Of a stretch of DNA of 64,000 nt, positions 1 to 18,381 are shown one piece after another. The DNA is taken from assembly GCA_000004695.1 (NCBI GenBank), contig CM000152.2, forward strand, positions 3,360,001 to 3,424,000. The letters run 5' to 3'. Position 1 is the stretch's first letter; each line of letters begins with the position of its first letter. The notes below the pieces were generated by a model. The model made no database searches. It worked only from the letters and a program-made list of their open reading frames with translations, and was not told where the DNA came from. The stretch comes from Dictyostelium discoideum. Taxonomy: Eukaryota. A program made the translations under genes and the position numbers.

Positions 1-1
1 T

Positions 2-3000
2 TATAAAGCACCACAAAATCAAGTAAATTCAATCACAAAATTTTGTAAATATTGCAAAAAGAAAGGTCATGTAATTCAAGAGTGTTGGTCTAAAGATAAA
101 AAGAATAATTATAATGAGAATAAACAATCATATAATAATCATAGCACTAATGCAATTACAATGGTTAATGATAAAACGATTAATTCTATTGGAACTGATA
201 GTATGAATGCAGCATTATTAATAAATGATAAGAATGTTAGAAGGTTAGTTGATACTGGTTCTTCTCTTACCATCATTTGGGAAAGTATTGCTAAAAAATT
301 AAATTTAAAAGTTGAAGGTAAATCATTTTCAGTTAATTCAGCATCAAATAATGAAATTAAGATAGTTGGTAGTTGTGATACCATAATTAAATTAGGTAAA
401 GCATCCGCAAAAGGTAATGTTAATATTGTTAAAGATAATGATACTTCAATCGATTGCATTTTTGGTGTAGATACACTTATTGGATTGAAATTAATAATTG
501 ATTGCAAGGAAATGATCATTAAGAATCTTGAATTTAATGTTGGTACAAGATTAATCACCAGAGAAACCAAACCAATTGTTTGCAAAATTGATCTAAATAT
601 ATTAGAAAAAGTATCAAAACCAATGGCTGAGTTATTAATCAAAAATGAAGAGATTTTTGAAACCAAATTGTCAAAACCAGGATCATTAATAGATGTTGAA
701 CATTCAATTAAATTAACTGATGAAAATGTTTCTGTTTATACTCCACCATACAAAACTAGTCCAGCTGATAAAGAATTCATTGAAGAATACATTAAAGATG
801 CATTAGATAAAGGTATAATCGAGAAATCAGATTCATCACAATACGGTTCTCCAATAGTCTTATCCAGAAAGAATGATAAAATTAGATTTTGTGTTAATTA
901 TAAAAAACTAAATGACCTCACAATTAAAGATAGATATCCACTTCCATTAATTTCTGATTGTTGGTATTATCTCAAAGATGCAAAAGTTTTCTCAAAAATT
1001 GATCTTACTTCTGGTTATTATCAAATCAAAATGAAAGAAGAGGACAAGGATAAAACAACCTTTGTCTCTCATATGGGTCAATTTAGATATGTTGTAATGC
1101 CATTTGGATTATGTAATGCACCAGCAACTTTTCAAAGATACATGAATGAATTATTAAAAGATGAATTAAGAAAAAGTAATATTGGGTTTATTGACGATTG
1201 TATAATTTATAGCAAGAATAATGAATATCATATTGAACATGTCAAACTATTATTCGAAAAATTCAAAGAAAAAGGTGCAAAGTTACAAATAACTAAATGT
1301 GAGTTTGAAAAAGAAGAGATCAAGTTTTTGGGATATATCGTTTCAAAGAATGGTATTACTTATGATAGTTCAAAGTTTAATGAATTATTAAAAACACCAC
1401 CTCCATCAAATCAAAAAGAATTAATGAAATTACTCGGTACTGTCAATTACTTTAGAACATTCATTAAAAATTTCACTCATTTAACTTCATCATTTTATCC
1501 ACTATTAAAGAAGGGTGTTAATTTCAAATGGACTGATGAATTGGAAAATGATCGTGTAAAATTATTTACTACATTAGCACAAACTAATCTTTTAAGTTTT
1601 CCACAAGATACAGATGATAATGTTATTGAAACTGATGCTTCAATTATTGGTATTGGTGGTGTAATGATTCAAAATGGTAAACCAGTTTCTTATTATTCAA
1701 GAACATTAAACAACGCTGAAAAGAATTATTCTGTTACTGAAAGAGAATGTTTGGCAATCATTGAATCAATTAAATATTTTAAATCCTATATCAATGGTAG
1801 AAAAGTAAAAATCATCACTGATCATCAACCTTTGAAATATCTCTTAACTGGTAAATTTACTGATCGTATTACAAGATGGACTGTATTACTTCAAGAGTAT
1901 AATTACGAAATTATATATAGACCTGGTAAAGAAAACTTTTTAGCTGATGCATTATCAAGATGTCCAGATAGAGATCAACAGCCAATTGATTGTGATATTC
2001 CAGAAAAGATATTTACAATTACTCACTATCCAGTAGCTTCACCATCAACTACAATTTTACCAAGAGTCTTACCATCAAGATCAAATCAAACATCTAATGT
2101 TTCACCAGCTACAACAATTCAACCACCAAATTCATCAAGTTCAAATCAATCATCAAATATCCCACCAACAACAAACCAATCATCAAATATTACAAATCAA
2201 CCAATAAATACTTCATCAATGAATTTAAATCAATCATTATCAAATCCACCATCTCTTATTACAAATCAAGCAACAACCGCTAGATTATTGAATAGTGTAC
2301 CTATCTCAATCAACAATGATAATATTAATACAACAATTCCACAATTTACACAAGAGTCAATAAGAAAAGAGTTGGAAAAAGAAAATTATTATAGAGCAAT
2401 GTATAAATATCTTGAAGAAACAAGACTTCCAGACAATGCACAAGCAGCAAGAAGAATTTTGTTGGAGTCTGAATTTTATTCAATGATTAATGGATTTCTT
2501 TGTCACGGTTTAAAACATACTTTATCAAGTAAGAAATCTCATTTTAAACATCTTCAAATTGTAGTTCCAAAAACTATGACTAAATGGATAATGGAAATAT
2601 TTCATGATTCGCCACTTACTGGAGGACATTTTGGATTATTAAAAACTGTTGCAAAAATCAAAGAAAGATTCTATTGGATTGGTATGATTAAGGATATAAA
2701 AGAATTTATCGATAAATGTACAACTTGTTTACAAATTAAAAGAAAGTATGGTCCAAAAGAAGGTTTACTCATTCCAATTGAGATTGAACCTGAACCATTT
2801 AATACAATTGGTATTGATTTTATTGGTCCAATTACAAAAGATAATGCTCAAGTTTATTTGTTGGTTGTTATGGATTATTTTACTAAATGGCCAGAAGTTT
2901 TCTTTACCCTTGATATGGAAGGGGAGACTGTAGCTCAATTATTGTTGTATGAAATCTATACTAGATATGGGGTTCCAAAGAAGTTGGTTTCTGATCGTGG

Positions 3001-3610
3001 TAAGAATTTTTTAAGTAATGTAGTCTCTGGTGTTAATAAATTATTCGGTGTTCACAAATTAACAACTACTGCTTATCACCCACAATGTGATGGTCAAACT
3101 GAAAATTTCAATAATACATTAATTAAGATGCTCAAAGCTTTTATTGGTAATGAATTGTATGGCAATTGGGGTGAATTATTAAGATGTGTTTTATACTCAT
3201 ACAGAATTACACCACATGTTTCAACTGGTTTTTCACCCTTTTTCTTAATTTTTAATCGTCAACCAACTTTACCATTAGATACAACTTTAAATGTAAATTT
3301 TTATTCAAATTCACTAAGATTAGATTTCGCTGATAATTATGCACAATCCGTAAATAATAATCTTAAACGTGCCTTTTGGTTTACAAAGAATAATCATAAT
3401 CGTCCAACAAATATTCAAACAGGTGATTTTGTTTATTTACATACACCATATTCACAAACTTCTATTGGTCCAAAGAAATTCTATAAACCTTGGAGAGGTC
3501 CTTTTAAAATTCAAGAAAAAGTTAGCGATGTTACATTCAAATTAGATATGGGTAATCTTAGAGATCATAAAGTAGTCAATATTGAAAGATTGAAAAAAAT
3601 TTTCAACTAA
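2..3610 (+). CDS. gag-pol polyprotein, 5'-partial and open to the window edge. It holds the gag zinc knuckle, aspartic protease, reverse transcriptase, RNase H and integrase.
   Basis: Frame 2 is open from nt 2 to the TAA at 3608-3610; the ORF track's 1149 aa run 161..3610. The D(T/S)G protease motif is near nt 251. RT motifs read YVVMPFGLCNAPATFQ and FIDDCIIYS. RNase H reads IETDAS...TDHQPL. The integrase shows H..H...C..C, then D (IGIDFIGP), D (VSDRGKNF) and E (TENFNNT). A 110-aa S/T/N/P/Q-rich low-complexity linker separates RNase H from integrase. Confidence 0.85.
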   Translation, partial: YKAPQNQVNSITKFCKYCKKKGHVIQECWSKDKKNNYNENKQSYNNHSTNAITMVNDKTINSIGTDSMNAALLINDKNVRRLVDTGSSLTIIWESIAKKLNLKVEGKSFSVNSASNNEIKIVGSCDTIIKLGKASAKGNVNIVKDNDTSIDCIFGVDTLIGLKLIIDCKEMIIKNLEFNVGTRLITRETKPIVCKIDLNILEKVSKPMAELLIKNEEIFETKLSKPGSLIDVEHSIKLTDENVSVYTPPYKTSPADKEFIEEYIKDALDKGIIEKSDSSQYGSPIVLSRKNDKIRFCVNYKKLNDLTIKDRYPLPLISDCWYYLKDAKVFSKIDLTSGYYQIKMKEEDKDKTTFVSHMGQFRYVVMPFGLCNAPATFQRYMNELLKDELRKSNIGFIDDCIIYSKNNEYHIEHVKLLFEKFKEKGAKLQITKCEFEKEEIKFLGYIVSKNGITYDSSKFNELLKTPPPSNQKELMKLLGTVNYFRTFIKNFTHLTSSFYPLLKKGVNFKWTDELENDRVKLFTTLAQTNLLSFPQDTDDNVIETDASIIGIGGVMIQNGKPVSYYSRTLNNAEKNYSVTERECLAIIESIKYFKSYINGRKVKIITDHQPLKYLLTGKFTDRITRWTVLLQEYNYEIIYRPGKENFLADALSRCPDRDQQPIDCDIPEKIFTITHYPVASPSTTILPRVLPSRSNQTSNVSPATTIQPPNSSSSNQSSNIPPTTNQSSNITNQPINTSSMNLNQSLSNPPSLITNQATTARLLNSVPISINNDNINTTIPQFTQESIRKELEKENYYRAMYKYLEETRLPDNAQAARRILLESEFYSMINGFLCHGLKHTLSSKKSHFKHLQIVVPKTMTKWIMEIFHDSPLTGGHFGLLKTVAKIKERFYWIGMIKDIKEFIDKCTTCLQIKRKYGPKEGLLIPIEIEPEPFNTIGIDFIGPITKDNAQVYLLVVMDYFTKWPEVFFTLDMEGETVAQLLLYEIYTRYGVPKKLVSDRGKNFLSNVVSGVNKLFGVHKLTTTAYHPQCDGQTENFNNTLIKMLKAFIGNELYGNWGELLRCVLYSYRITPHVSTGFSPFFLIFNRQPTLPLDTTLNVNFYSNSLRLDFADNYAQSVNNNLKRAFWFTKNNHNRPTNIQTGDFVYLHTPYSQTSIGPKKFYKPWRGPFKIQEKVSDVTFKLDMGNLRDHKVVNIERLKKIFN

Positions 3611-3620
3611 AAGGGGGGGA
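3609..3620 (+). other. Polypurine tract (plus-strand primer site) of the LTR retrotransposon.
   Basis: aaaaggggggga lies immediately after the pol stop codon and immediately before the putative LTR start (TG at 3623). Confidence 0.7.
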
Positions 3621-3959
3621 TATGTAATAAAGTTACTCTATAAAATTAATAGATATTAAATATGCATATTACATTACTAATTATAGTTGACACACATTTA
3701 AATAATATAATAATAATAATAATAATAATACTGTCAACTCATTATGAATAATATAAATACTAAAGAATAATTGTATAAACAATATTGAATATTATAAATA
3801 TAAACTAATATTAAATAAAGATAACAAAGTATTATTCAATTATATAATTATTAATTATATATATTTATAAATTTTTTTTTTTTGAATTGGATAACGCAAT
3901 TATTATTTGCTTCTCCTTGAGATGCTAGATCTCATTTTATTTTTTTTTTTTTTTTTACA
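3621..3959 (+). repeat. Putative 3' LTR of the Ty3/gypsy element. The 3' boundary is uncertain (anywhere from 3890 to 3959) because it abuts the 3' end of the neighbouring TRE5-like element.
   Basis: The segment begins TG just after the PPT and is non-coding. A possible terminal CA sits at 3958-3959 just before the B-module-like repeat starts. The 5' LTR is not in the window, so no direct comparison is possible. Confidence 0.45.
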
Positions 3960-4155
3960 GGGTCTTTTTGATTAAAACATCTTTTTTGTCCAAACTTTTT
4001 TCTAAATCTTTTTTTATTTTATCGTCTGGTTCGTGATTGATGTTTATGACGTATTTGAATTGTTTTTTTTTTAATTGAGTTTTATCCACAATTTCGCTTA
4101 TTTTTTGTAGGCATTTGTGTTGCTTAATATTTGTGGTGTTGTTTGTGATTTTCAT
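3955..4155 (-). pseudogene. Truncated duplicate of the ORF1 start (66 aa), lying inside the second copy of the B-module-like repeat.
   Basis: Its protein is identical to the first 63 aa of the 442-aa ORF, and it sits within the 3968-4200 repeat copy. Confidence 0.7.
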
Positions 4156-4196
4156 TTTATTTTCTTTCTATCTTTTTTATTTTTCTGATTAACTTG

Positions 4197-4256
<60 letters not shown>
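3968..4256. repeat. Direct repeat copy 1 (B-module-like), ending in T55 on the + strand.
   Basis: It is near-identical to 5696-5965, with the shared string ttttgattaaaacatcttttttgtccaaac...gattttcattttattttctttctatcttttttatttttct. A 55-nt T run follows at 4201-4256. Confidence 0.8.
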
Positions 4257-4257
<1 letters not shown>

Positions 4258-4553
4258 TTATAGAAAGTACTGAGTGAATTATTGTATTTTTTGAGATGTT
4301 TAGGAAGTTCTATTGCGGGTGTTGATGATGATTTGTGACACCCCTTGTCCTGTTTTATCAATTGGTGCGTGGTGTGTTATTTTGTTTTTATATTGTTGAT
4401 TTATTGAGTAAATTTTATTTGTTTTTATATTTGTTTCAGTTAGAAGTGCTGCGTCCAGCTTGTTGTTGTCTAAAACGGTGTTTATTATGCTGGCAGATTG
4501 GATGGTGTTGGATCCTTGGACGTTCCAAACACCTATTCTTATTGTGTTTTTCT

Positions 4554-5882
4554 TTATAGTTTTATTTGGGGTAGATTTTTATCTACCTTTTGAAGTTTCT
4601 GGTTTATTTTGTCTTCTAACTGATCTTTACTTTGTTCGTTGTGTTGTTGGTCTTGTGTGTTTGTGGGGTTTTTTGATTTATTGATTTGTTTTAGAATTTC
4701 CTTGTTGAAGTTGTCTATATCTTCATCCATTTTTGTTTTTATGCTTTTTTGTCCATATTCACCCAATTTTGGTTTGACTGGTGTTTTGTTGTTTGTTTTG
4801 TCTTGTTGTTTCTTTTTTGGTGTGTTTAACAATTTACTTGGTGAATCGATAATTTTCGATGGTGTACCATAGGTTGGGCTGAAACTCATGATATGTTTTA
4901 TTGGAGAGGAGAAGAACCATTGATTTGAAGGGATTGAAAGTGGGAATTCTATTTTTCTTATTGCATCAGTGTTTGGGCTGGTGAAGTCGAAGATATCATT
5001 TGCCTCTCTAAGTTTTTCTTCCGTTGTTAGTCCCTTTGTTTCGCCGTGTTGTTTTATTGGTGTATTGTATGGAGATGGTGGTTCGATAGGTTTTTCTGAT
5101 TTTGTTTTAATTTCTTGATTGTTTATCGATTGTGTATTGATCTCATTCTCTATTCTTGTTAGTTCATCTACGTTTTCTAGTGATGCTTCTATTACCTTTT
5201 GAGCTGTATCATCTAGGGCCATAAATGTTTTATCATTAGATGAGGATGTGATTGGTGGGATAATGATTGTTCTTTTTCCTTGTTTTGGTATTTGTTCTGA
5301 TGTAGATTGTGGTTGTTGTTCATCTGATTGTTTTTTATTTTTGTTTTCTTCTTGATTTTCTGGTAATGAGGTTTGCTCTCTCCCTCCTTTGTTGGAGTCT
5401 CCAATTAATGTTAGATTGTCTAGTTCAATGATAGTGTCAAATTCTTCTACGACTCTTTTCACTGTTTTGATAATTAGAGTTTCGCCTTTAATTTCTAATT
5501 TAATTAGTTTACATCCTTCATTTTCTATTACCCATTCTATTTCTGTGAGTGATTTATACCAATCAAAATCTGTATACATATTTTTTGGTCTTATAGTGGT
5601 TATAAATTGTCCTTTTAATTCTGCATCAAACATATTTACAAAATAGATTACTGTACTAATACTGTCTGTGAGAATTTTGAATGTATTATTACTTTTGATT
5701 AAAACATCTTTTTTGTCCAAACTTTTTTCTAAATCTTTTTTTATTTTATCGTCTGGTTCGTGATTGATGTTTATGACGTATTTGAATTGTTTTTTTTTTA
5801 ATTGAGTTTTATCCACAATTTCGCTTATTTTTTGTAGGCATTTGTGTTGCTTAATATTTGTGGTGTTGTTTGTGATTTTCAT
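4554..5882 (-). CDS. Retroelement ORF1 protein (442 aa), lysine/acidic-rich with no recognisable enzymatic motifs.
   Basis: It is an intact ORF from the supplied track, with composition far less N/Q-rich than the host genes. Its first 63 codons are duplicated verbatim at 3955-4155. Confidence 0.6.
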   Translation of the reverse strand: MKITNNTTNIKQHKCLQKISEIVDKTQLKKKQFKYVININHEPDDKIKKDLEKSLDKKDVLIKSNNTFKILTDSISTVIYFVNMFDAELKGQFITTIRPKNMYTDFDWYKSLTEIEWVIENEGCKLIKLEIKGETLIIKTVKRVVEEFDTIIELDNLTLIGDSNKGGREQTSLPENQEENKNKKQSDEQQPQSTSEQIPKQGKRTIIIPPITSSSNDKTFMALDDTAQKVIEASLENVDELTRIENEINTQSINNQEIKTKSEKPIEPPSPYNTPIKQHGETKGLTTEEKLREANDIFDFTSPNTDAIRKIEFPLSIPSNQWFFSSPIKHIMSFSPTYGTPSKIIDSPSKLLNTPKKKQQDKTNNKTPVKPKLGEYGQKSIKTKMDEDIDNFNKEILKQINKSKNPTNTQDQQHNEQSKDQLEDKINQKLQKVDKNLPQIKL

Positions 5883-5957
5883 TTTATTTTCTTTCTATCT
5901 TTTTTATTTTTCTTTAAAAAGTTAAAAATCTGGAAATTTTCTAATTAACTTGGTTCC

Positions 5958-6026
<69 letters not shown>
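5696..6026. repeat. Direct repeat copy 2 (B-module-like) with a 27-bp insertion, ending in T61 on the + strand.
   Basis: Same sequence as copy 1 plus ttaaaaagttaaaaatctggaaattttc inserted before the terminal taattaacttgg. A 61-nt T run lies at 5966-6026. Confidence 0.8.
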
Positions 6027-6029
<3 letters not shown>

Positions 6030-6145
6030 TCTTTTTTATATGAAAAATGAAATAATCAAAAAAAGAGATTGTTGTTGTTGTTTGTTTTTTTCGATCTCAT
6101 ATATATTTATAAAGCTAACAAGCTTTATTACATGAAAAACATCAA

Positions 6146-6218
6146 GGTTTTATAGTGTAATTGGTTAGCACCCAGGACTTTGAATCCTGTAATCTGAGTT
6201 CGAGTCTCAGTAGAACCA
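6146..6218 (+). tRNA. tRNA-Gln (anticodon UUG).
   Basis: It folds by hand into a cloverleaf. The acceptor stem is ggtttta/tagaacc (one G-U pair) and the D stem is gtgt/gcac. The anticodon stem cagga/tcctg carries loop cTTTGaa (U33, anticodon TTG, A37). The T stem ctgag/ctcag carries loop ttcgagt, the variable loop is 4 nt, and the discriminator is A. The A and B boxes are internal. A T5 run follows immediately. Confidence 0.85.
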
Positions 6219-6226
6219 CTTTTTAT
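6219..6226 (+). terminator. Pol III terminator T-run after tRNA-Gln.
   Basis: cttttta lies directly 3' of the discriminator base. Confidence 0.6.
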
Positions 6227-6254
6227 TATTTCAAATTTCAAATTTCAAATCGCT

Positions 6255-6265
6255 GGTTCGATTCC
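6255..6265 (+). promoter_or_regulatory. External B box (exB) downstream of the tRNA gene.
   Basis: ggttcgattcc is a perfect B-box consensus 37 bp after the tRNA 3' end. Extra downstream B boxes are a known feature of many Dictyostelium tRNA genes and are bound by TFIIIC. A (TTCAAAT)3 repeat precedes it at 6229-6249. Confidence 0.6.
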
Positions 6266-7338
6266 ATATGGTGGAGAAATAAGCAATTAATGACTTGTGG
6301 TTCATGAACAAAAAAGTGGAAACTCAGATCAAAATTATAAAAATCCATTATAAATCTTCCTGGTACTAATCCTTTATTATTGAAAGATTATGCTAGAATT
6401 GGTTCTAACTTCAAATATAAGAGGTCTTGTCCAAAAAACAAAGAAATCCACAAAATTACACCTATAAATACACTAAGTATGCAGATGGATCATGAGGTAA
6501 AATAGACAACCCAAATCTTAGATTCTACAAAGAATACTTTAAATGGGGATATAAATGTGTAAATTGTGACCTATCCCTCATATAGAAACATAATTGCATT
6601 AATAATTCATAACATCTGTGTGGGATGTGCACTCAATTTTATAGTAATGAAAAGCTATCATACTAGATTCTATTTAATGTTACAAACCAGTAACTATAGA
6701 ATATAAAAGAAAAAAAATTGAAATTAACTCTTCCAAAGGATCTTATCAATTTTAAAGTCTCAAACAATTTCTTAAAAATGAATTATTAAATTAAGAAAAT
6801 TAACTTGCAAAGTATATTCCCTAATCAGTGCTTCCAACTAGGTTGGAACAAAAAATAATAAAATGGGTCAGTAGAAATGGATTAATCTCCTTTGACCAAA
6901 TCATTATTTGATAAAAAAAATATTTTAATTTTAATAATAACTAATCATGCTCGAAATGTACCATTGAAAATAGCTAGCTCACTATCTTGTTTGAAAATCA
7001 TGAAACTGCTGGTTTAATTGGTATGGAATGTTGCTCAACTATCTACAATGAATCAGAATGCCTGCAAAGACATCAGTATTGATCGATTTCAAGATTTATA
7101 TTAACTTTCATAATTTCAAAATAAATTGGGGACTCAAACACCACATCCGCCCAATTCATTGGTTTATGCGGTTCCAAACACTACACATCCAATAATATTT
7201 AAATGAAAAAAAAAATCTTAATTAAAGGTTTATAATTGAATCAAAAATTATTTAAAACAACTATTTTATATTTTTATTAATTTTTAAATTCTAATTTAAA
7301 AAAAAAAAAAGACACAAATTTAGGTAACCATCAATATT

Positions 7339-7898
7339 TTAAATATGATTATGATATATTGGTTCATTTTGCCAATTATCAGTTGCACCATCTAAAAATG
7401 TAACCTTTAATTTTGAAAGTTGTTCATGAGTAATGCCTTCGATTGTATTAACGTTAACAGCATAAAATGGAGCATTTGGAACACCTTCCATTTTGACAAG
7501 AGTATATGTATTAACACCACAGGCTTTGCAAAAATAGTTATCATTTATCTTTGAACCATATAGGTAATTTTCTTGATCATTTTCACCTTTTAATACTTTG
7601 AAATCTTTAGGGCAAACAATAATTTCCCAAAATCTAGTTTTTAAACAATATGCTTTTTTTTTTTTTTTTTTAAAAAAATTTATTTTATGTTTTATTAATA
7701 TTTAATTTTGTTTTATTTGATTTCTTTTATTTTTTTTTTTTTTTTTTATTTAATTTTAAAATAAAAATTGGTATACTTACAACAATTACATCTTAAAGTT
7801 TCTGATTTTAATAATTCAGTTTCAAGTTTACATTGAAATCTAACATTACCACAATGGCATGATCCAAAAAATTCTTTACTATTTTCATTAATATCCAT
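7339..7898 (-). CDS. GFA / CENP-V family (Mss4-like zinc-binding) protein, 143 aa, two exons. It is absent from the ORF track because of the intron.
   Basis: Exon 1 is 7898-7781 and reads MDINENSKEFFGSCHCGNVRFQCKLETELLKSETLRCNC. The donor is GTAAGT and the intron spans 7780-7653. Exon 2 is 7652-7339 and reads SYCLKTRFWEIIVCPKDF...FCKACGVNTYT...stop. The CxCG and CxCSxC cysteine signatures match the glutathione-dependent formaldehyde-activating (GFA) / CENP-V family. Confidence 0.65.
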
Positions 7899-8288
7899 TT
7901 TTATGTATTTTTTTTTATTTTTGTGAGAGTGAATAATAAGATGAAATTATTGACGTGTGGTGAAATGGTGAAATGAAAATCTTTTGAACAAAAAAATAAA
8001 AAAAAAAATTTTTTTTGTTGTTTTTATACCTTTCACAACCTTCAGTTTGAAATATCTTTTTTTTTTTTTTAATTTTTTTTTTATTATTTTTAAATAATGA
8101 AAGGTCACTATTTAATTACAAGAAAATCAATTTTTATTCGAAATTTAATTAATTTTTGCAGGCCAGTCCCAATCTGATGGTGCTATTTCAAAAATATCTC
8201 AAATCAAATTATTTTAATTTTATTTTTAGTTCAAATAATTAACCTAAACTTTTTTTTTTTTTTTTGATTGGAAATAATGATTTGAATA

Positions 8289-8324
<36 letters not shown>

Positions 8325-8361
8325 TTGTTATTCTATTACAAATTTTAATTTATTTATTTAT

Positions 8362-9166
8362 TTATCTATTTGAAGAAAAAGATTCGTAATCTTCATCCTC
8401 AAAATTACCTTTATTATCATTATCGTCACTATCGTCATTATCTCTACTAGTTCTTGTACTTCTATTTTTATAACCGCTATAATCGTCGTCATCATTATTA
8501 TTATTGTTGTTATCATCATCATCCCCATTTTCACTCTCATCTGGATGATACTCCTCTTCTTCATCTTCTAATTCCAATGGATATCTTAAAATTGCTGCAA
8601 CACCTGATAATTTTGAAAGTTCTATATTGATAATAATAATATTATTATTAATAATAAATTAATAAATTAAATGAGTATATATAAATATATAAATATATAA
8701 ATATAAATATTAAATTTTTAAATATATATATACATACGTTCACCAGTTACATGTAAACCAGAAAATAATTTAACATCACCTTTATTATCTTTAACGGATT
8801 GAACCAAGTCAACATACTTTTTTCTAGTTTTTACATCTTTACCACGAAATAATTCATCAGTGACCAAGAGGGTTTCAATTGCTAATCTTTCATTTGCCTT
8901 TTTAACATGTTCGTAACCATAGAAAGCTCTATTTGGATCTTTTTTCAACATATCATAAAAATCATTAAGAATCTTAACTTCACTAGCTGCTTTTGTATTT
9001 GAGAATTGTTGAACGATTGCTTGATCTGATAAAACCTCTTTCAATGAATATCTATGTCCTGATGATGAATGTGTTAAAATAAATTTTGATTTATTTTGTC
9101 TAAATACTTTATACAAATCATTCTTTGATGATTGATCCATCATATATTGAAAGAATTTATCCTTTT

Positions 9167-9201
<35 letters not shown>

Positions 9202-9212
9202 TAAATAAATAA

Positions 9213-9246
<34 letters not shown>

Positions 9247-9914
9247 TATTAATTATAAATTATTATATTTACTTTAACAAAAGCTGGTGAAGCAATTATA
9301 AAACATTTTACAACATCAAAATTAATATTTCTAGTCATTGATTGTAAGATTGTATTGAAAAAGTTTTCTAAACCTTTTTGATGATTATCAGATGTTGATC
9401 TACCTTTACGTGGTACAGGTACTTCGATTCTACTTTTAACAACGGTCATTGCTGATGTGATTAAACAAAGATTTGCTAAACCCTCATTCATGATTAATGC
9501 AGCAACATCGGCACGTTGACCTATATCAGTTGCATTTTTGACCAACTCCAATGAGATCATATCCCATTCTTGTTTTTGTAACTGAAACTCTCTATTCATC
9601 TCTAAATCGATAGTATGAAATGATCCAAGTTTAACAAATCTATTCTCTACACATGTTGCTCCACTAACACGAAGTAATGATGATTCATTATCGTGATCGA
9701 TTTTGGTGACTTGAATGGTTATCTTTAATTTCTGTCTCTCACTTGTTACACTACCAGTTGCTGTCTCTTTTTGAATCTTTCTTACTGTTGAACTTGTTAA
9801 TAGATCACCTACACTTATTAAATTATAACAATGCCATAAATCTTCTTCTTCTTCTAATTGTAATTTTACATATCCTGATAAATCTTTTTCAATATATTTT
9901 TTAATTAATTTCAT
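8362..9914 (-). CDS. Pelota / Dom34 (no-go decay ribosome rescue factor), 3 exons with an acidic Asp/Asn-rich C-terminal tail.
   Basis: The exons are 9914-9273, 9170-8738 and 8621-8362, with a GTAAAT donor after exon 1 and a GTATGT donor after exon 2. The protein opens MKLIKKYIEKDLSGYVKLQLEEEEDLWHCYNLISVGD...ASPAFVK, runs through ...LTHSSSGH...AFYGYEHV...LLVTDELFR... and ends GEQLSKLSGVAAILRYPLELEDEEEE.... These are strong pelota hallmarks. About 444 aa. Confidence 0.85.
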
Positions 9915-10545
9915 TTTTCTAAATTATTTCTTTTTTTTTAATTATTTTTTTTTTTTTATAATAAAATTATTTGCATATTATTTTTTTTTTTTTTAAAATC
10001 TTTTCTACTTTTTGTTGTATAAATTCATATATAAAAATAAAATTGTTGTTGTTGAATTTCTTTTTTAAAAAAAAAAATATTTTTTTGTTTGATATTTTGT
10101 GGAAGCGAGAAAAAAGAAAAAAAGAAAAAAAAATAAAAAAAAAAAATTGAAAAAAAAAAAATGAAAATTAAAAAAAATTAATAAAAAAAATAAAAAAAAA
10201 AATAAAAATAAAAAATAAATTAAAAAAATAAAATAATTTTTTATTTATTTAATTATTTAATTATTTTTGGTGGGGATGTAGTTCAAAAAAAAAAAAATAT
10301 TGCAAAAAAAAAAAAATAACAATAATAATAATAAATGGATATAAAAAGAAAAAAAAAAATAAAATAAAATAAAAAAGATAATTAGATAATATATTTAATA
10401 GTTGTTAAATTGATAATTTTGTTTTGTTTTGTTTTTTTTTTTTGGAAAAAATGGAAATTAAATTTTGTTTTGTTTTTTTTTTTTTTTTTTTTTTGGAAAA
10501 ATTATTTTTAGATTTTTTTTTTTAGATTTTTTATTTTAAAATTTT

Positions 10546-11762
10546 TTATTTGTTACCATCTGTACTTCTACTAAAAAAGGAAGATCTTTGAGGTTGCGTA
10601 TTATTATTATTATTATTATTACTATTATTACTATTATTATTATTATTATTATGAAATTGAGCCTTCATCTCTTCATTTGTTTTCTTTTCAAATTCTCTTA
10701 AACTTTCCATATCCATATCAAACCATTGATCAATCCAACAGAATATCTGTCTATGACCCATAAAAAAAGTATCTCTAAGTGCAACTCTTTGAATAAAATT
10801 CTCTACTTTATTTTGAACACCCCAACATCTAAATTCTACTTTACAAACTTTATAACAACACATAATTGGTTTTGTCGATTTCTAATTTTTTATTTATTAT
10901 TGTTGTTAATATAAATTATTATATTAATAAATTGATTTGTTGTTTTGGTTTTTTTTATAAATATAAAAAAGATTAACAAACTTACCATCCAATCATTTTG
11001 TAATTTTCCTCTACCAGTTTTTACAGATTGAAATATTTTTGGATCTTCTTCTGGTTTATAATGTGCTTCGTCGATTGGATCATTTACAATATCAATATGT
11101 TCTACCTCTCTAATACTTAATTCTTCACTATTTAAATTTAAACACTATTGGATTAAAAAATTAAAAAAAAAAAAAAAATGAAAAAGAAGAAATAAAATCA
11201 TTAGAATTTATAACTCCTCAATCAAATAGAGGTGTGAGTGTGATATGACATATCTAGGTATTTACATTGTCTTGTGTACCTGAATCTGGTTCATATCTAG
11301 TTTCGATTGATACTGAAAATCTATCACCCAATAAAGGACACTATATAATTATATTTTTAAAAATGATGTACGTTAATATAAATTTATTTATTGATAAAAT
11401 ATCATCTCTATCACTCTCTTTCTCTTTCTTTCTCTCTCTCTCCTATTGTAATGAATAATGATACAAACAGCATAACTTGTTTTACAATATGGATATGCAT
11501 TCCAAGCTTTCTCTTCAATTTGTAATGAAGTTGGAGCGAATGATCTTAACCAGGTTGGTAATCTACCACCTAAATGAAAAATTTTACGTGTAAAGAAACC
11601 AGTTGTTGCACCGTCTGCGTATGGTTTATTCTCTATGACTTCAATACCTTCACCCAAAGATGTATTCTTTTTACTTATTGTTGCAACCATAAAAAGTTGT
11701 GCTACTTTATATTCTTCAACTGTAAGTGGTAATGGAATTCTAAATTCTTTAATTAAAACCAT
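10546..11762 (-). CDS. Phosphatidylinositol transfer protein (class I PITP), 4 exons, with a poly-Asn C-terminal tail.
   Basis: Exon 1 is 11762-11469 and reads MVLIKEFRIPLPLTVEEYKVAQLFMVAT...EKAWNAYPYCKTSYA. Exon 2 is 11340-11266 (CPLLGDRFSVSIETRYEPDSGTQDN). Exon 3 is 11144-10986 (...EAHYKPEEDPKIFQSVKTGRGKLQNDWM). Exon 4 is 10881-10546 (KSTKPIMCCYKVCKVEFRCWGVQNKVENFIQR...HRQIFCWIDQWFDMDMESLREFEKK...). The product is collinear with mammalian PITPalpha, about 287 aa. Dictyostelium has pitA and pitB; I cannot tell which this is. Confidence 0.85.
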
Positions 11763-12243
11763 TTTTTTTTTTTTTTTTTTTTGTTGCTTTGAAAATAAAA
11801 AGTTTTTGATTTTCGTTTATTTCTTTTTTTTTTTTTTTTTTTTTTTTTTTGCTTCGAAAATTTTTATTATCTTAAAATTTCCGTGAGGCGACTGGTTTCT
11901 TCTTAAATATTTAAGATGGGAAAAAAAAAAAGTTACTTTATTTTTTTGAGAAATAAAATTAAAAAAAATATATTTTTACAGTTATTATTATTATTATTAC
12001 TATATTATTATTATTATTATTATTACTATTTATCTGTGTGGTAATCAGGTGAAAAAAAAAAAAAAAAAAAAATAAAAAAAATAAAAAAATAAAGAAAATT
12101 TTTTTTTTTGAAAATAATAAAAAAATAAAAAAATAAAAAATAAAAGAAAAAAAAAAAAAAAAATTGAGGGTGTGGGGGGAGATTGAGACTATTGGCTAAA
12201 AAATCCAATGTATGTTGATGATATCACACTTAATACGATTATT

Positions 12244-12302
<59 letters not shown>

Positions 12303-12357
12303 TTGGTTTTACAAAAAAAAAAAAAAATAATAATATGTTATAATGTTTAGAAAAAAA

Positions 12358-12389
<32 letters not shown>

Positions 12390-12580
12390 AAAATATAAAA
12401 AAAAAAAAAAATAAAAATAAAAAAAAAAAAATAATAAAAAAAAATATTACAATCGTTTACAGTAAAAATTTTAAAAAAAAAAAAATTTTGAAAAAAAAAA
12501 AAAAATAATTTTTAAAAAATAAAAAAAAAATCAAAGTTTTGTGTTGACATTTTAAAAAAAAATAAAAAAAAAAAAAAATA

Positions 12581-12726
12581 ATGCAATCTTTACTCGTTGG
12601 CGATTACAAATGCAGGTAAATAAATATTATATTTATTTCTTACAAAAAATTGAAAATTTTTAATTTTTTTTTTTTTATGATATTAATATCTTTTTTTTTT
12701 TTGTTATTATTATTATTATCTAAATA

Positions 12727-12759
<33 letters not shown>

Positions 12760-13165
12760 TAGAGTTAGTTCAGTATTAAATAAACAAACTAAAGAATATG
12801 GTAAAGAGAATTTATTTGATAAAAGTGAAGAAACATGTTGGAATTCACATCAAGGTACACCACAATTTATAGTGATTCAATTTCCTCAAGAAAATGGTGT
12901 AACATTGTCAAGTGTGAATATTATGTTTCAAGGTGGATTCGTTGGTAAAGATTGTGAAATTTTAACAATGTCAACAAATTCAGATTCAAAAGAATTTATT
13001 CACTCTTGTTATTTCTATCCAAAAGATATTAATACAACTCAACAATTCCCAATTGATTCAATTAAAAATACAAATATTAAACAAATTAAAATTTTATTTC
13101 CTCAAAGTACTGATTTCTTTGGTAGAATTACAATTTATCAATTAGATATTTTAGGTGAACCAACT

Positions 13166-13171
<6 letters not shown>
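12581..13171 (+). CDS. NR2C2AP (TRA16)-like small galactose-binding-like domain protein, 2 exons, about 147 aa.
   Basis: Exon 1 is 12581-12615 (MQSLLVGDYKC, then AG at phase 2), with a GTAAAT donor. Exon 2 is 12763-13171 (R VSSVLNKQTKEYGKENLFDKSEETCWNSHQGTPQFIVIQFPQ...FQGGFVGKDCEI...FFGRITIYQLDILGE). The motif order matches human NR2C2AP. Confidence 0.7.
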
Positions 13172-13200
<29 letters not shown>

Positions 13201-13360
13201 AAAAAACAAAAAACAAAAAACAAAAATTAATTCTGTAAAAACATTAAATTTTAATTTTATCCTTTTTTTTTTTTTTTTTTTTTTTACACTTTTTATTTTT
13301 CAGTTTAAAAAAAAAATAAAATAAATAATAAATAAATTTAAATGATTTTATTTAATTTTA

Positions 13361-13422
<62 letters not shown>

Positions 13423-13443
13423 TGTTTTTTTTTTTTTTTTTTT

Positions 13444-14060
13444 TTAATAAAGATTTGAAACGATTTTCTTTTCCCAAATTGTTAATTTTTCGAAATTTGT
13501 GTTGATTTGAGGAAGTTTTTGAAAAATTCTTTCACCTTGGTATTCAAATTTATTATATGGGATTGATGATTTTGGAGTAAATCCAATATGTTCACAAAGT
13601 TTTTGACCAGATACAGTTGCAGTTTCTGCACACATATATTGAAAGTTATGAGCTCTACCTATATCTGTACTATGATACCACATATCATATGCAACACCCT
13701 TAAAAAGGAAATTTAATTAATAATCTATATATATTTCAAAGTGATGATAATTCTGTTTGTTGTTGTTGTTTTTTTTTATTTTTTTTACATACTTGACCTC
13801 TAGAACTTGGAACAACGCATGTAAAATATAAAGAATGAATAATCTCACCAAATCTAATTGTATTTGGATGTTCTTTTTTATATTTATGATGTAAATTTGA
13901 AAACATTGATTTTACTGGTTCCTAATTGTTTTTCATTTTGAAAAAAAAAAAAAAAAAAAAAAATTATTAGTATTTTTTTATTAAATTATTATTATTTTTA
14001 TTTTTTTATTTTTTTATTTTTTTTTATTTTTTTTTTATAATAATAATAATAATAATAATG

Positions 14061-14114
<54 letters not shown>

Positions 14115-14418
14115 TTTTTACCCATTTTTTATCTAAACTTGTATGAAATTCTTCAGGTTCTCTAGTTTTCCAATCTTCATTAATAATACAACCAACGATT
14201 TGATCTGTTTCATTATCAATTGCAACTAAGCTTAAATCTTTTTTTGCAGCTCTGTCAACGAATAATGTTGCCATTTCAGTCCAATTATTTTTATTTAAAT
14301 TTAACGCAATTGAAAATGGATCTGTTGCAAAACTTTTAGTAATTGAATCTACAACTTTTGGTACCATATTTGGTGTTAACATTTTATATGTTATTTTTGA
14401 TAAATGTTGATGACTCAT
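13444..14418 (-). CDS. GNAT-family N-acetyltransferase, 3 exons, about 226 aa.
   Basis: The exons are 14418-14122, 13921-13793 and 13698-13444, with GTAAAA and GTATGT donors. The acetyl-CoA binding motif R-G-Q-G-V-A spans the exon 2/3 junction. Surrounding sequence reads ...IVGCIINEDW... and ...FTCVVPSSRGQGVAYDMWYH.... The (TAA)n tract at 14038-14116 lies in intron 1. Confidence 0.65.
14038..14116. repeat. (TAA)n microsatellite of about 26 units in intron 1 of the GNAT gene.
   Basis: It is a direct ataataata... array. Confidence 0.9.
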
Positions 14419-15529
14419 TTTATTTTATTTTTGATTTTTTTTATTTATTTATTTAAAATATTTGAAATCCTGTTTTAAAATTACTATTTTTATTTTTATT
14501 TTTTTTTATTTTTTTATTTTTATTTTTATTTTTTTATTATTACAACTTCCAAATTTAACACAGACTTGAATGAAAATGAAAATGAAATTTTTTTTTTTTT
14601 ACTTTTTTTTTTTTTTAATTTAAAAATAAATTTTAATTATTAAAAAAAAAAAAAATAAAAAAATAAAAAAATAAAAAAATTTTTAATTTAATAAAAATTT
14701 TTAAAAAGTAATCAAAAAAAAAAAAGATATTTTTAATTTTTTTATAAGCAGTATTTTTATTATTATAATTTTTTTTATTAAAAGTATTTTTAAAAATAAA
14801 AATTTATTTTAAAACAATGGTTGTTTATTTTTTATATGAAAAAAAGTTTTTTTTTTTTTTTTGGAAATATCAAATAAACTAAAATTAGTATAAAAATATA
14901 AAAAATCATATATCTTTTTTATTTTAATTTATATTTTTTTATTCTTCCAATCATCTATCTTTTTTATTTTATAAAAAAAAAACAAATAAATAAAAAAAGG
15001 AAAATAAAAAATTTATAAAATAATTAACCAATTCAATCAATCAATTATTATTATAATTATTTTTTTTTATAAATCTATTTTTTATATAAAATTTTTTCCC
15101 TACTCATTGTTTTTCAAAATAAAAAAACAAATACAAAAAAAAGGATGATAAATAATTAAATTTAAAAATAAAATTTTATTTTGATTAAAAAAAAAAAGAA
15201 TTGTTAATTCATTTTTTAATATTTTTAAAATCACCTTGTGTAATTTGAGTGCTCTATTTTTCTATTATAAATTCAATTTAAAAATAAATAAAATTAAATA
15301 ATTGTTTGTAAAAAAAGAATATTTCTATCAATATTTCTTCACAATTTCCCATAAAAATTTTTTTTTTCACTTTTTCATTTTTTTCATTTTTCATTTTTTT
15401 TTTTTTTTTTTTTTTTTCATTTTTTTTTTACAAGCTTTCTAAACAAATAACCATAATAAAAAAGAATCAATATAAGTAATAATTTATAACCAAATAAAAA
15501 ATAATAATAATACATATATTTTTAAAAGG

Positions 15530-18381
15530 ATGCAACAACAACAACAACCAAAAGTTAAATTAAGTAAAAAAGATTATATTGAAAAGAAAGAAAAAGAACA
15601 ACAATTACTTAACAATAATAATAAAGTTAATAGAGAAAAAGATGGTAAAATAATGATTGAAAAGAATTTACAAGAGAAACAAGATGATATATTAATGAAT
15701 GAAAAAAAAAAGCAACAATCAGGTTTAGGTATTGATAAAACCTTTACATTAGTAATCAATACATTGGGACATTTAGAAAAGAAGAATGATTTAGATCAAT
15801 ATTGGGTACTAAATAATAAAGAATATCATCTATCATTCATAACATTCTTACCAGCAGATAACAATGAACAAGGCTCATCCGAAGAATCAATACTATTCAT
15901 GAATTCCGATTTATCAAGTTTATTAAAATTTCAATATAATATATTTTGGTCACATTGTATTTTCAATAAATCATTAAACGAATTCATTGATTCATTTTTA
16001 AAATTTTTTAAAAGAGATAATCAACCAATAATTTCATTAGTAAATAATAATAGTGTTAATAATAATAATAATAATAATAATAGTATAATTAAAAAAGGAT
16101 CAAAAGATTTTAATGAATCAAAGAAATTATTATTTAAACGTGTATTTTTGGTTTTGGTTAGAATGTCGTTACAACAAGAGAAATCAGGTTTTATAACTAG
16201 AGAATTCTATTCTGATTTAATTTATAAAAATAAATTATTTACAATTCCAAAATTATTCGATATAGTTTCATTATATTCATCTCATGCAAGAGATGCTGTA
16301 ACAACAATGATTCAAAGTATTTTCGATACTCAACCAAATTATTATAAAGATTTACTTCAACATTTTCAATTAATTTCAAAAACATTATTTGAATTAAATC
16401 AAAGTTTATTAAATAGAGTATATATATATATAAATATATAGTAAATTTATTTTATTGATAATAATAATAATAAATAATAATACTAATAATTTAAATTATT
16501 TTAGAATTTATTAGATTTATTAAGATTAGAAGATAATTATTTAATGGATATTGTTTATAATTTAGAACAATTTATTAGAATATTTCCAATGGGTAGTCAT
16601 CAATTATTTGATGAATATTTGATGAATTTAGAAAAGGGTGGTGGTGATGGTAATGGTGGTGTATTGGGTTGGTTAACTTATTTCTATGAATATATAATAC
16701 CAATTTTTAATAAGGAGAATCAAAAAGCATCAAATAAACAAGTCAATTTGACGCCATCGATTTACGTACCACTAAAACAACATATTCTTTCTATTTTCCA
16801 TACGATTTTCAGACACCATTTCATGATAAAGCTTGAGCAATTACAATTGTTAATTCAAGATCCATGTCAGTTATGTAAAAAGTTACCATTGGATGAAATC
16901 TCTCATAGATTCTTCTCTTTGTTGGGTAATATCACTTCATTTAGTCAACAAATCATTGGTTCAACTAAATCTAATAGATCAAAACTTTTCAATGAATATT
17001 TCGATAATATTACAAGTGCTTCAATCTTATATGATTATGAACAAACTTACAAGTTATCAAATTTCTTGGATAAATTGGTTACCTTGGATTCATCAATTGA
17101 TTTCACATCTTATACTTATTTTATGCAATTAATTGGTAAACCTGTATCACAAGATCAAAAACAAATTCAAAAACCAAAATTCAAAAAATCAACAACAATT
17201 ATTGATTCAAATATATCATCATCATCATCATCATCATCATCATCGTCACCATCAAATGCTACTACAACAGTTAAACCAATCCTTTCAAATAATCCTGTAA
17301 TTATGAATACTGTTAAAATTGATCAAGTTAAATCTTTATTCCCTGATCTTGGTGATTGGTTCGTTCATTGTTGTTTAAAGTATTATAATCAAGATGTTGA
17401 ACAAGTTATTAATGCACTTTGTGATGATTCTTCCCTTCCACCACATTTGAAATCAATGGATAGATCTTTATCTTCTGATCCTTCTCAACCTTCTAAAAAT
17501 ATACCAACACCAACAACTACAACAACTACAACTACTACAACTGATAAACCAAATAATACTACTACTGCTACTACTACTACAACTACTACCACTTCAAGTA
17601 GCAAATCACTTGAAAAATCTATGAATGAATTGAATATTAGCATAGGGTAATATACATATATATATTTATGTATATTTATATATATTTTTTTTAGAATTTT
17701 ATTTTTTATTTATACTTACTTTTTTTTTTTTTATATTATTAATATAAAGACAAAAACCAAAGAATGATATTAGTATGGAAAAGGTTAAGGCATATATAAA
17801 AGCTATGAAAAAATTTATGATGAAAAATATGATGATTCACTTGAAGAGTTTTCAGGTTTCTCTGTTCAAGATGGTGAAAAATATAATGATGAAGATGAAG
17901 ATGAAAAGAAGGATAGTGAAAATAATACAAATACTGAAGACCAAAAACATCCAACCACCAGTGCATCAGGTAGAACTCCAAATGAATCAAATAATCTTGG
18001 ACGTCCAAGACAAAATAACCCAAACAAGGGTAGAAAAGAGGATAATCGTAATAATAAGCAACAAACTCATTCATCTCATCATTCTCAGCCACAACAACAA
18101 CAACAACAGCAACCACCACAACATCAACCACAACCACATCAACAACCACAACAACAACCACAACCACATCAACATCAACAACCACAACAACAGCAACCAC
18201 AACAACCACAACATAAACAGCAACCAAAACCACAACAATCAAAACAACATCCACAACAACAACCAAAACAACAACCAAAACAACAACCACAACAACCAAA
18301 ACAACAATCACAACAACAACCAAAACAACATCCACAACCACAACAACCGCAACAACCACAACCACAACCACAACCACAACC

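Follow-up and report, generated by a model that had tools for sequence, protein, structure and literature searches.

A probable TRE5-A.2 insertion inside the 3' LTR of a DGLT-A retrotransposon at a tRNA-Gln(UUG) gene of Dictyostelium discoideum

Introduction

DGLT-A (2001; Spaller et al. 2016, PMC5006619; Kling et al. 2018, PMC6101501) is a Ty3/gypsy element of D. discoideum with an ORF of 1437 aa (PMC6101501) and a polypurine tract placed directly upstream of the right LTR (PMC5006619). The LTR element analyzed here resembles it in its single gag-pol ORF with a CX2CX4HX4C knuckle, the lack of a chromodomain and a short C-terminal extension of the integrase. Its LTR is of similar length (about 265-268 bp), the right one follows a polypurine tract, and in the orthologous locus a TGG-type primer binding site (PBS; TGGCGACATCGTCTTT) lies 2 bp beyond the left one. 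Its position, 13 bp upstream of a tRNA gene, is a further similarity. The present copy differs in that its 3' LTR is interrupted by a second element, probably TRE5-A.2.

TRE5-A.2 is a form of TRE5-A/DRE (Marschalek et al. 1992; Beck et al. 2002; Siol et al. 2011, PMC3159450) with the published architecture AB-ORF1-BC, in which ORF2 is deleted and the B/C region carries a further deletion (PMC3159450). The second element shares the AB-ORF1-BC order and the oligo(A) tail, the loss of ORF2, a B/C deletion of ~72 bp with a 3'-terminal remnant of the C-module, a 5' end that faces the tRNA 5' end at 47 bp and a 15-bp target-site duplication (TSD). Differences concern ORF1, which has 442 aa instead of 444 aa, and the target, which is a DGLT-A LTR and not native flanking DNA.

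Yeast Ty3 is likewise an LTR element; guided by the Pol III machinery, it inserts about 15 bp before the 5' end of the mature tRNA, and nested Ty insertions illustrate how tDNAs gather successive insertions. Nonetheless, Ty3 integrase contacts TFIIIB, whereas the RNase H/IN-NTD region of DGLT-A contacts the TFIIIC subunit Tfc4 (PMC6101501), and a non-LTR partner like TRE5-A is absent from yeast.

Results and Discussion

The tRNA-Gln(UUG) gene and its surroundings

The window, i.e., the complete 64-kb stretch of DNA that was analyzed, derives from chromosome 3 of D. discoideum AX4, where genes DDB_G0280521 and DDB_G0280523 are located. One tRNA-Gln(UUG) gene has almost certainly received two Pol III-directed retrotransposon integrations in succession, first DGLT-A and then TRE5-A.2, and is the Pol III target for both. 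The gene and its flanks comprise:

6133-6145, plus strand: native upstream flank of the tRNA gene, 13 bp, TGAAAAACATCAA
6146-6219, plus strand: tRNA-Gln(UUG) gene (ARAGORN, ttg; Rfam RF00005, 67.4 bits)
6255-6265, plus strand: external B box GGTTCGATTCC, 36 nt downstream of the tRNA end

The B-box core GGTTCGA has just two occurrences in the window. The same B-box motif lies 29-41 nt downstream in six out of 11 sampled D. discoideum tRNA genes, and it recurs downstream of tRNA genes of this species in L002, L005 and L008. The orthologous locus in an independent assembly (L001) has an identical structure, with 99.5% identity across 15.9 kb, so the arrangement is not an assembly artefact.

Anatomy and family of the minus-strand element

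The minus-strand element is composed as follows (plus-strand coordinates):

3872-6098, minus strand: TRE5-A.2 non-LTR retrotransposon, 2227 bp, 5' end at 6098 facing the tRNA
3872-3883: oligo(A) tail
3884-3965: 3'-terminal remnant of the C-module
3966-4198: 3' copy of the B-module, preceded by poly(A) at 4199-4255
about 4256-4317: ORF2 remnant (last ~60 nt), with the junction of the 3.1-kb ORF2 deletion at about 4317
4318-4553: ORF1-ORF2 spacer
4554-5882, minus strand: intact TRE5-A ORF1, 442 aa (DDB_G0280523; 100% identical to XP_641179.1)
about 5693-5961: 5' B-module, containing the ORF1 ATG
5962-6026: poly(A)
6027-6098: terminal 72-nt partial A unit

Read from its 5' end, the element thus consists of a partial A unit, B-module, ORF1, deleted ORF2, B-module, truncated C-module and oligo(A). 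The two B copies are marked by a 221-nt direct repeat (100%; 3966-4186 equals 5693-5913). Elements in nine other loci are colinear with it (98.2-98.7%), and in these nine genomic copies homology begins at the complement of 6098. Relative to the full-length copy in L004, a 3133-bp deletion removes ORF2, and a B/C deletion of ~72 bp leaves about 85-87 nt of the C-module. ORF1 shows 97-98% identity to a 444-aa family, of which D. discoideum chromosomes carry at least 17 sequence variants, one exact variant being encoded at no fewer than nine places. At least one full A unit of 199 bp occurs in all nine comparison copies, whereas only the 72-nt partial unit is present here. This lone unit may result from 5' truncation, an internal start or a later collapse of repeats. 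As a complete A-module of 199/200 bp is absent, TRE5-A.2 probably misses the full plus-strand promoter.

The element is almost certainly a non-autonomous TRE5-A.2 deletion derivative without a complete A-module. It is very unlikely to be TRE5-B, TRE5-C or an unclassified TRE5-like element, even though a location 34-95 bp upstream of tRNA genes is common to all TRE5 elements, Pfam finds no domain in the 442-aa ORF1, and NCBI names the latter just a hypothetical protein. The DGLT-A and TRE5-A names rest on published architecture, lengths, the 17-mer of the PBS and the 1437-aa ORF length. Duplication of the B-module (5' and 3') is unique to TRE5-A among TREs (PMC5006619). TRE5-B and TRE5-C have no 3' B-module and TRE5-B has no C-module (PMC3159450), whereas both modules are present here. 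The pair of deletions is also exactly the one published for TRE5-A.2. Moreover, the element belongs to a high-copy family with ORF1 variants on many chromosomes, and the published copy numbers are 102 for TRE5-A, 25 for TRE5-B and 18 for TRE5-C. Restoring the deletions and one A unit yields about 5.63 kb, which fits the TRE5-A consensus of 5647 bp and not a length of 5971 bp. The distance of 47 bp to the tRNA coincides with the published primary site of TRE5-A (47 +/- 3 bp), and the 15-bp TSD lies in the published range of 10-16 bp. The initial annotation had recognized the tRNA gene with its external B box and had expected the 442-aa ORF to match TRE5-A ORF1; ARAGORN, Rfam and the motif search agree with the former, and a high-copy family with the published TRE5-A architecture agrees with the latter.

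The split LTR and the order of insertion

The sequence on both sides of TRE5-A.2 belongs to the 3' LTR of the other element:

3609-3620, plus strand: polypurine tract AAAAGGGGGGGA, read from the sequence, 2 bp upstream of the 3' LTR
3623-3871, plus strand: left 249 bp of the DGLT-A 3' LTR, starting with TGTAATAAAG
3857-3871, plus strand: left copy of the TRE5-A.2 TSD, 15 bp, ATATATATTTATAAA, the last 15 bp of the left LTR part
6099-6113, plus strand: right copy of the TRE5-A.2 TSD, 15 bp, ATATATATTTATAAA, LTR sequence
6114-6132, plus strand: final 19 bp of the DGLT-A 3' LTR, GCTAACAAGCTTTATTACA

The 15-mer ATATATATTTATAAA is found at both junctions and nowhere else in the window (0.03 occurrences expected by chance), and the intact 5' LTR in L001 holds a single copy of it. 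TRE5-A.2 sits inside the 3' LTR, 19 bp from the LTR end, so that the right TSD copy and the last 19 bp of the LTR, 34 bp altogether, remain on the tRNA side of the element. Its 5' end is oriented head-to-head with the tRNA gene, 47 bp from nucleotide +1. Rejoined, the two LTR halves are identical to the intact 5' LTR in L001 at 268/268 positions. A split LTR whose rejoined halves equal the intact 5' LTR fixes both junctions and proves that DGLT-A arrived first and TRE5-A.2 second.

It is extremely improbable that TRE5-A.2 came first, or that recombination or mis-assembly created the adjacency. The preferred site of DGLT-A (13 bp) is nearer to the tRNA than that of TRE5-A (47 bp), so a later DGLT-A would also finish beside the tRNA. 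However, it would then stand whole between TRE5-A and the tRNA, whereas the TRE actually divides the LTR into parts of 249 and 19 bp, 15 bp of LTR sequence are duplicated, and the halves rejoin without a mismatch (268/268). The split-LTR test thereby refutes both a reversed order and a non-insertional origin. Such repeats are easily mis-assembled, yet the independent assembly has the identical structure.

The insertion of TRE5-A.2 into a resident DGLT-A agrees with the initial annotation as to the sequence of events. The boundary it had placed at 6098 is exact and, at 47 bp from tRNA +1, lies within the 45-55 bp it had predicted; the TSD to be sought there and at the LTR/TRE junction is the 15-bp repeat at 3857-3871/6099-6113. 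It was right that the TRE5 element is the later arrival but not that this element is wedged between the LTR element and the tRNA, as it sits inside the 3' LTR. The assignment of positions 6114-6132 to the LTR, as its final 19 bp, had been overlooked.

Identity of the LTR element

1-3610, plus strand: DGLT-A internal region, C-terminal 1202 codons of the single gag-pol ORF

DGLT-A is represented in the window by its 3' 3.9 kb (1-3871 plus 6099-6132), while the ORF start, the gag N-terminus and the 5' LTR lie to the left and are seen only in the orthologous locus L001. The gag-pol frame, which corresponds to DDB_G0280521, is open from window base 2 to a TAA stop at 3608-3610 and encodes, in this order, the gag NC zinc knuckle, protease, RT, RNase H and integrase. 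The knuckle (CX2CX4HX4C, CKYCKKKGHVIQEC) is in frame with pol. In the ORF at 161-3610, Pfam detects protease, RT, RNase H and integrase but no chromodomain; the RNase H match falls inside the published RNH segment of DGLT-A (733-879), and the integrase ends ~34 aa beyond the GPF motif. Over 100% of its length, the frame shares 98% identity with Q9GQ51/AAG37039.1, a polyprotein with the 1437 aa published for the DGLT-A ORF (PMC6101501). The copy measures 4970 bp with an ORF of 1422 aa (consensus: 5054 bp and 1437 aa). Compared with Q9GQ51, it has 26 substitutions as well as in-frame indels, one of which removes 14 aa from the C-terminal region of the integrase.

The LTR has a length of 268 bp (3623-3871 joined to 6114-6132) compared to 265 bp in the literature, and its end (GCTAACAAGCTTTATTACA) and start (TGTAATAAAG) form a terminal inverted repeat. 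A full-length DGLT-A copy (L011) carries the identical polypurine tract. The published PBS TGGCGACATCGTCTTTC is located 2 bp after the left LTR and matches at 16/17 positions in L001 and 17/17 in L011. Between the LTR end and the tRNA are 13 bp (published DGLT-A range: 13-33 bp), the first four of which (TGAA, in 6133-6145) are the right copy of a putative DGLT-A TSD; its left counterpart, which is not contained in the window, immediately precedes the 5' LTR in L001. This TSD is short; L011 also has one of 4 bp (TTTT).

Polyprotein identity, the single frame, the lack of a chromodomain, LTR length, PBS and tRNA distance all point to DGLT-A. A Skipper-type chromovirus (Skipper-1 or Skipper-2/DGLT-P) shares the RT-RNH-IN order and also belongs to the Ty3/gypsy elements of D. 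discoideum, and Skipper-2 is also associated with tRNA genes, but this identity has a negligible probability and is refuted by the integrase that stops ~34 aa after the GPF motif without a chromodomain, by gag NC and pol in one frame instead of two ORFs, by a TGG-type PBS instead of a polypyrimidine tract, by a 268-bp LTR instead of 390 bp or 208 bp, by a position upstream and not downstream of the tRNA, and by 98% identity to Q9GQ51. Skipper-1 is about 34% identical to DGLT-A. The DGLT-A type had been favored over Skipper from the outset, and Q9GQ51, the absent chromodomain and the PBS in the orthologous locus bear this out; the single gag-pol frame proposed with it holds too, although in the window it is visible only from the NC zinc knuckle onward.

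Proposed course of integration

In a first step, DGLT-A very probably inserted 13 bp upstream of tRNA +1, oriented like the tRNA gene and flanked by a putative 4-bp TSD (TGAA). TRE5-A.2 then inserted 47 bp upstream of the same tRNA, very probably by target-primed reverse transcription, and duplicated 15 bp of LTR sequence; based on the literature, a TRE5-A.1 may have supplied the ORF2 protein for this mobilisation in trans. As DGLT-A was already present at this position, the insertion site fell inside the 3' LTR. Published work further suggests that targeting relies on protein contacts with the tDNA-bound TFIIIC/TFIIIB complex, DGLT-A RNase H/IN presumably contacting Tfc4 and the TRE5-A ORF1 protein TFIIIB.

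The anatomy, junctions, TSDs, insertion order and family identities are results of the present analysis; the locus itself is already known and ordinary, and its every feature agrees with published descriptions. Because the target DNA of TRE5-A.2 is foreign LTR sequence, the distance of insertion appears to be measured from the tRNA and not from the local sequence.

Organization of the locus

Upstream of a tRNA-Gln(UUG) gene, a DGLT-A element and a TRE5-A.2 element are nested, and a diverged repeat lies on the other side of the gene. The features comprise:

1-3871 and 6099-6132: the two parts of DGLT-A
3608-3610: stop codon of the DGLT-A open reading frame (ORF)
3609-3620: polypurine tract AAAAGGGGGGGA, after the stop codon and ahead of the LTR
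3623: start of the DGLT-A 3' LTR, TGTAATAAAG
3872-6098, minus strand: TRE5-A.2
6146-6219, plus strand: tRNA-Gln(ttg), called by ARAGORN and matched by the Rfam tRNA model (67.4 bits)
6255-6265: external B box GGTTCGATTCC, 36 nt past the tRNA
6484-6825 (wider context 6270-7312): diverged repeat that contains no ORF, located downstream of both tRNA and external B box

The tRNA-Gln(UUG) gene and its external B box, both proposed in the initial annotation, are borne out by the ARAGORN and Rfam calls and by recurrence of the B-box motif. Of 11 tRNA genes sampled in the D. discoideum loci that were retrieved, six have the GGTTCGATTCC 11-mer, or a one-base variant of it, 29-41 nt downstream, which identifies it as a genuine external B box. 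The minus-strand 442-aa ORF at 4554-5882 matches DDB_G0280523 of D. discoideum AX4 at 100% identity, and the polyprotein beside it corresponds to DDB_G0280521, which places this stretch on AX4 chromosome 3. The orthologous locus in an independent D. discoideum assembly (L001; GCA_054883475.1, CM142509.1) shows 99.5% identity across window bases 1-15935 and reaches 5.4 kb beyond the window's left edge. A self-BLAST found no second copy of DGLT-A or TRE5-A within the 64-kb window.

Identity of the LTR element

The LTR element is DGLT-A, and the main features on which the initial annotation had based this type (a single gag-pol frame and no chromodomain) hold up. Pfam profiles identify aspartyl protease, RT, RNase H, integrase zinc-binding, integrase core and integrase C-terminal SH3 domains in the ORF at 161-3610, i.e., the Ty3/gypsy order PR-RT-RNH-IN within one ORF, with no match to the chromodomain profile (PF00385). 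The ORF ends about 34 aa past RGPF, in line with the short integrase C-terminal extension of about 32 aa after the GPY/F motif that characterizes DGLT-A. Its frame stays open back to window base 2 and includes CKYCKKKGHVIQEC, a nucleocapsid knuckle of the CX2CX4HX4C type; because this knuckle sits in the open frame of pol, gag and pol share a single frame. Over the entire length of the 1202 codons that the window covers, identity to the D. discoideum polyprotein Q9GQ51 (AAG37039.1) is 98%. A rival assignment to Skipper was rejected, and an antisense ORF at 139-666 (minus strand) was treated as a chance ORF inside the element.

The name DGLT-A is tied to Q9GQ51 by ORF length and domain coordinates rather than by an accession list. 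The single DGLT-A ORF encodes 1437 aa, of which residues 733-879 make up the RNase H domain (PMC6101501), and the Pfam RNase H match falls at about 774-868 in that numbering. The complete ORF, seen in the orthologous locus, encodes 1422 aa and differs from Q9GQ51 by 26 substitutions and by in-frame indels, one of which removes 14 aa (Q9GQ51 residues 1355-1368); these indels agree with the literature, according to which the DGLT-A copies of AX4 are not full-length. The primer binding site (PBS) of this copy lies outside the window and was read in L001, where TGGCGACATCGTCTTT begins 2 bp after the 5' LTR and shares 16 of 17 bases with the published DGLT-A PBS, TGGCGACATCGTCTTTC (PMC5006619), at the published position. 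Completed from L001, the copy measures 4970 bp with LTRs of 268 bp, compared to a published element of 5054 bp with LTRs of 265 bp and integration sites 13-33 bp upstream of tRNA genes. Here, 13 bp separate the last base of the LTR (6132) from the first base of the tRNA (6146), a distance within the published range. TGAA on both sides of the element is a putative 4-bp target-site duplication (TSD).

Identity of the minus-strand element

The minus-strand element is TRE5-A.2, a name that rests on published architecture, deletions and length rather than on a match to a named sequence. TRE5-A has the architecture AB-ORF1/ORF2-BC, with A, B and C modules of 200 bp, 290 bp and 134-137 bp, respectively, and TRE5-A.2 is AB-ORF1-BC, with an additional 72-bp deletion at B/C that keeps the last 87 bp of C (PMC3159450). 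Duplication of the B-module sets TRE5-A apart from all other TREs (PMC5006619). In the window, a perfect direct repeat of 221 nt (3966-4186 and 5693-5913) is found, the ORF1 start (ATG, 5882) lies within its 5' (second) copy, and a C-module remnant with an A12 tail occupies 3872-3965. The last ~82 nt of the element contain a hairpin fold (z = -2.7), in line with the hairpin published for the C-module. The initial annotation had proposed a minus-strand TRE5-A from the 442-aa ORF, and the B duplication, the ORF1 family and the TRE5-A.2 deletions all uphold it. TRE5-B and TRE5-C were rejected as rival identities, and a plus-strand ORF at 5389-5646 was treated as a chance ORF inside the element.

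The deletions were located by comparison with nine other loci that encode a 444-aa ORF1 (L002-L010). Their elements are colinear with the window element across positions ~100-2227 at 98.2-98.7% identity. L004, a full-length copy with an RT-containing 1047-aa ORF2, served as the reference. Relative to it, the window element misses 3133 bp (L004 764-3896), with the junction at element position 1782 (window base ~4317), and a further ~72 bp at the B/C junction, where element positions 2133-2143 stand in place of L004 4272-4356. With both deletions filled in and a single 199-bp A unit added, the 2227 bp of the window element would grow to about 5.63 kb, next to a published TRE5-A consensus of 5647 bp. 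When 13-16-mers taken from the ORF1 start and from the three modules A, B and C were looked for in the full text of the literature, the sole match was a bacterial paper with no bearing on TREs, and the primer lists of PMC4559204 and PMC3159450 contain no TRE5-A-specific oligonucleotides.

The window copy carries no complete 200-bp A-module, which is the plus-strand promoter; all that it retains is 72 nt of a terminal partial unit (6027-6098). In the nine elements used for comparison, a terminal partial unit of this length comes after a tandem array of between 1 and 22 A units of 199 bp, and the window element begins exactly at an A-unit boundary, GAGATCG. The missing module is a defect of this copy, e.g., by 5' shortening or repeat collapse, and does not speak against family membership.

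Two further observations concern the modules. In the long-read assembly, TRE5-A.2 copies carry A-unit arrays of about 22 units in L007 (627-4921) and about nine units each in L002 (3219-4921) and L008 (3216-4921), next to no full unit in the window copy; as array lengths differ among insertions, A-module copy number is highly variable. On the element's sense strand, a long poly(A) precedes both B-module copies (57 nt at 4199-4255 and 65 nt at 5962-6026) and therefore seems part of the duplicated unit; the 3' B copy is without about 36 nt (the AATTTCCAGATTTTTAACTTTTTAAAG region) found in the 5' copy.

Junctions and order of insertion

TRE5-A.2 inserted into the pre-existing 3' LTR of DGLT-A, 19 bp from the LTR end, duplicating 15 bp. 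Both anatomy and order can be read directly from the junctions. The 15-mer ATATATATTTATAAA flanks the element on either side (3857-3871 and 6099-6113) and is absent elsewhere in the window (0.03 occurrences expected by chance); published TRE5-A TSDs span 10-16 bp. To the right of the second 15-mer lies GCTAACAAGCTTTATTACA (6114-6132), whose end is the inverted complement of the bases that open the LTR. Joining 3623-3871 to 6114-6132 restores 268 bp that are present uninterrupted and 100% identical (268/268) as the 5' LTR in L001 (reverse complement 4386-4653), so that the 5' LTR serves as an empty-site reference. The split LTR thereby confirms that the LTR element came first, and the reversed insertion order was rejected. 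Where the initial annotation had placed the later TRE5 element between the LTR element and the tRNA, it turns out to be nested inside the 3' LTR.

The element boundary that had been proposed at about 48 bp from the tRNA was found at 47 bp from tRNA +1, flanked by the 15-bp TSD. TRE5-A.2 and the tRNA gene stand head-to-head, the element's 5' end facing the gene, as published for TRE5-A, which inserts about 47-50 bp upstream with a primary site at 47 ± 3 bp.

Downstream remnant and a different junction

A TRE3 element was looked for in 6270-7300, and only a diverged repeat remnant was found. At 6484-6825, it shares about 71% identity, in matching relative orientation, with a repeat downstream of tRNA-His in L002, and at 6505-6576 there is a weak match to the C-terminal portion of an ORF2 of TRE type with 1059 aa (L009 and L010). 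It is probably an old TRE3-like remnant, in which case the tRNA-Gln gene would be the target of three element classes. The A-run at 7299-7311 could be the tail of this repeat.

Elsewhere, in L010 (1255-4434 and 4611-6998) and likewise in L009, TRE5-A.2 lies directly against the 5' side of another non-LTR element; the 1059-aa ORF2 of that element and TRE5-A ORF2 are 32% identical. These loci show no detectable tRNA gene between the two elements and may thus represent a non-canonical or secondary target.

A second DGLT-A copy and possible recent activity

According to the literature, the D. discoideum reference genome contains no full-length DGLT-A and the family is probably dead. In assembly GCA_054883475.1 (JBTAPE010000033.1), locus L011 holds a structurally complete DGLT-A of 5044 bp (2551-7594) with an intact 1437-aa ORF, an exact match (17/17) to the published PBS, LTRs 98-99% identical to the window LTR and a 4-bp flank repeat, TTTT. 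It also lies 13 bp from a tRNA gene (tRNA-Met), in opposite orientation. The window-locus copy combines 100% identical LTRs with a PBS, a polypurine tract and an uninterrupted 1422-aa ORF. The identity of its LTRs implies a recent insertion or LTR homogenisation, though the ORF has several in-frame indels relative to the consensus. Taken together, the two copies would point to very recent DGLT-A activity in D. discoideum, or to a competent copy that some strains still carry, a reading we consider improbable. If it applied, the window-locus copy would have been disabled by the TRE5-A.2 insertion in its 3' LTR.

Targeting and significance

From published work, we infer the mechanism by which both elements came to this gene. 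DGLT-A would be targeted via binding of its RNase H/IN-NTD to the TFIIIC subunit Tfc4 (PMC6101501), and TRE5-A via contact of its ORF1 protein with TFIIIB, with TRE5-A.2 presumed to use an ORF2 protein borrowed from TRE5-A.1. The 47-bp spacing is kept even though the target DNA is foreign LTR sequence, as expected if the distance is measured from a tDNA-bound complex. Such spacing is in keeping with elements tethered to the Pol III transcription complex and not with recognition of the target sequence. All of this has already been described for D. discoideum, and published surveys explicitly report such nesting where elements share a tRNA gene; for a reference genome as well studied as this one, the value of the finding is little beyond confirmation of known biology. 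As such, the locus is a clear case from nature of one tRNA gene used by two retrotransposon classes that are unrelated, each of which keeps a fixed distance of its own (13 bp and 47 bp, respectively).
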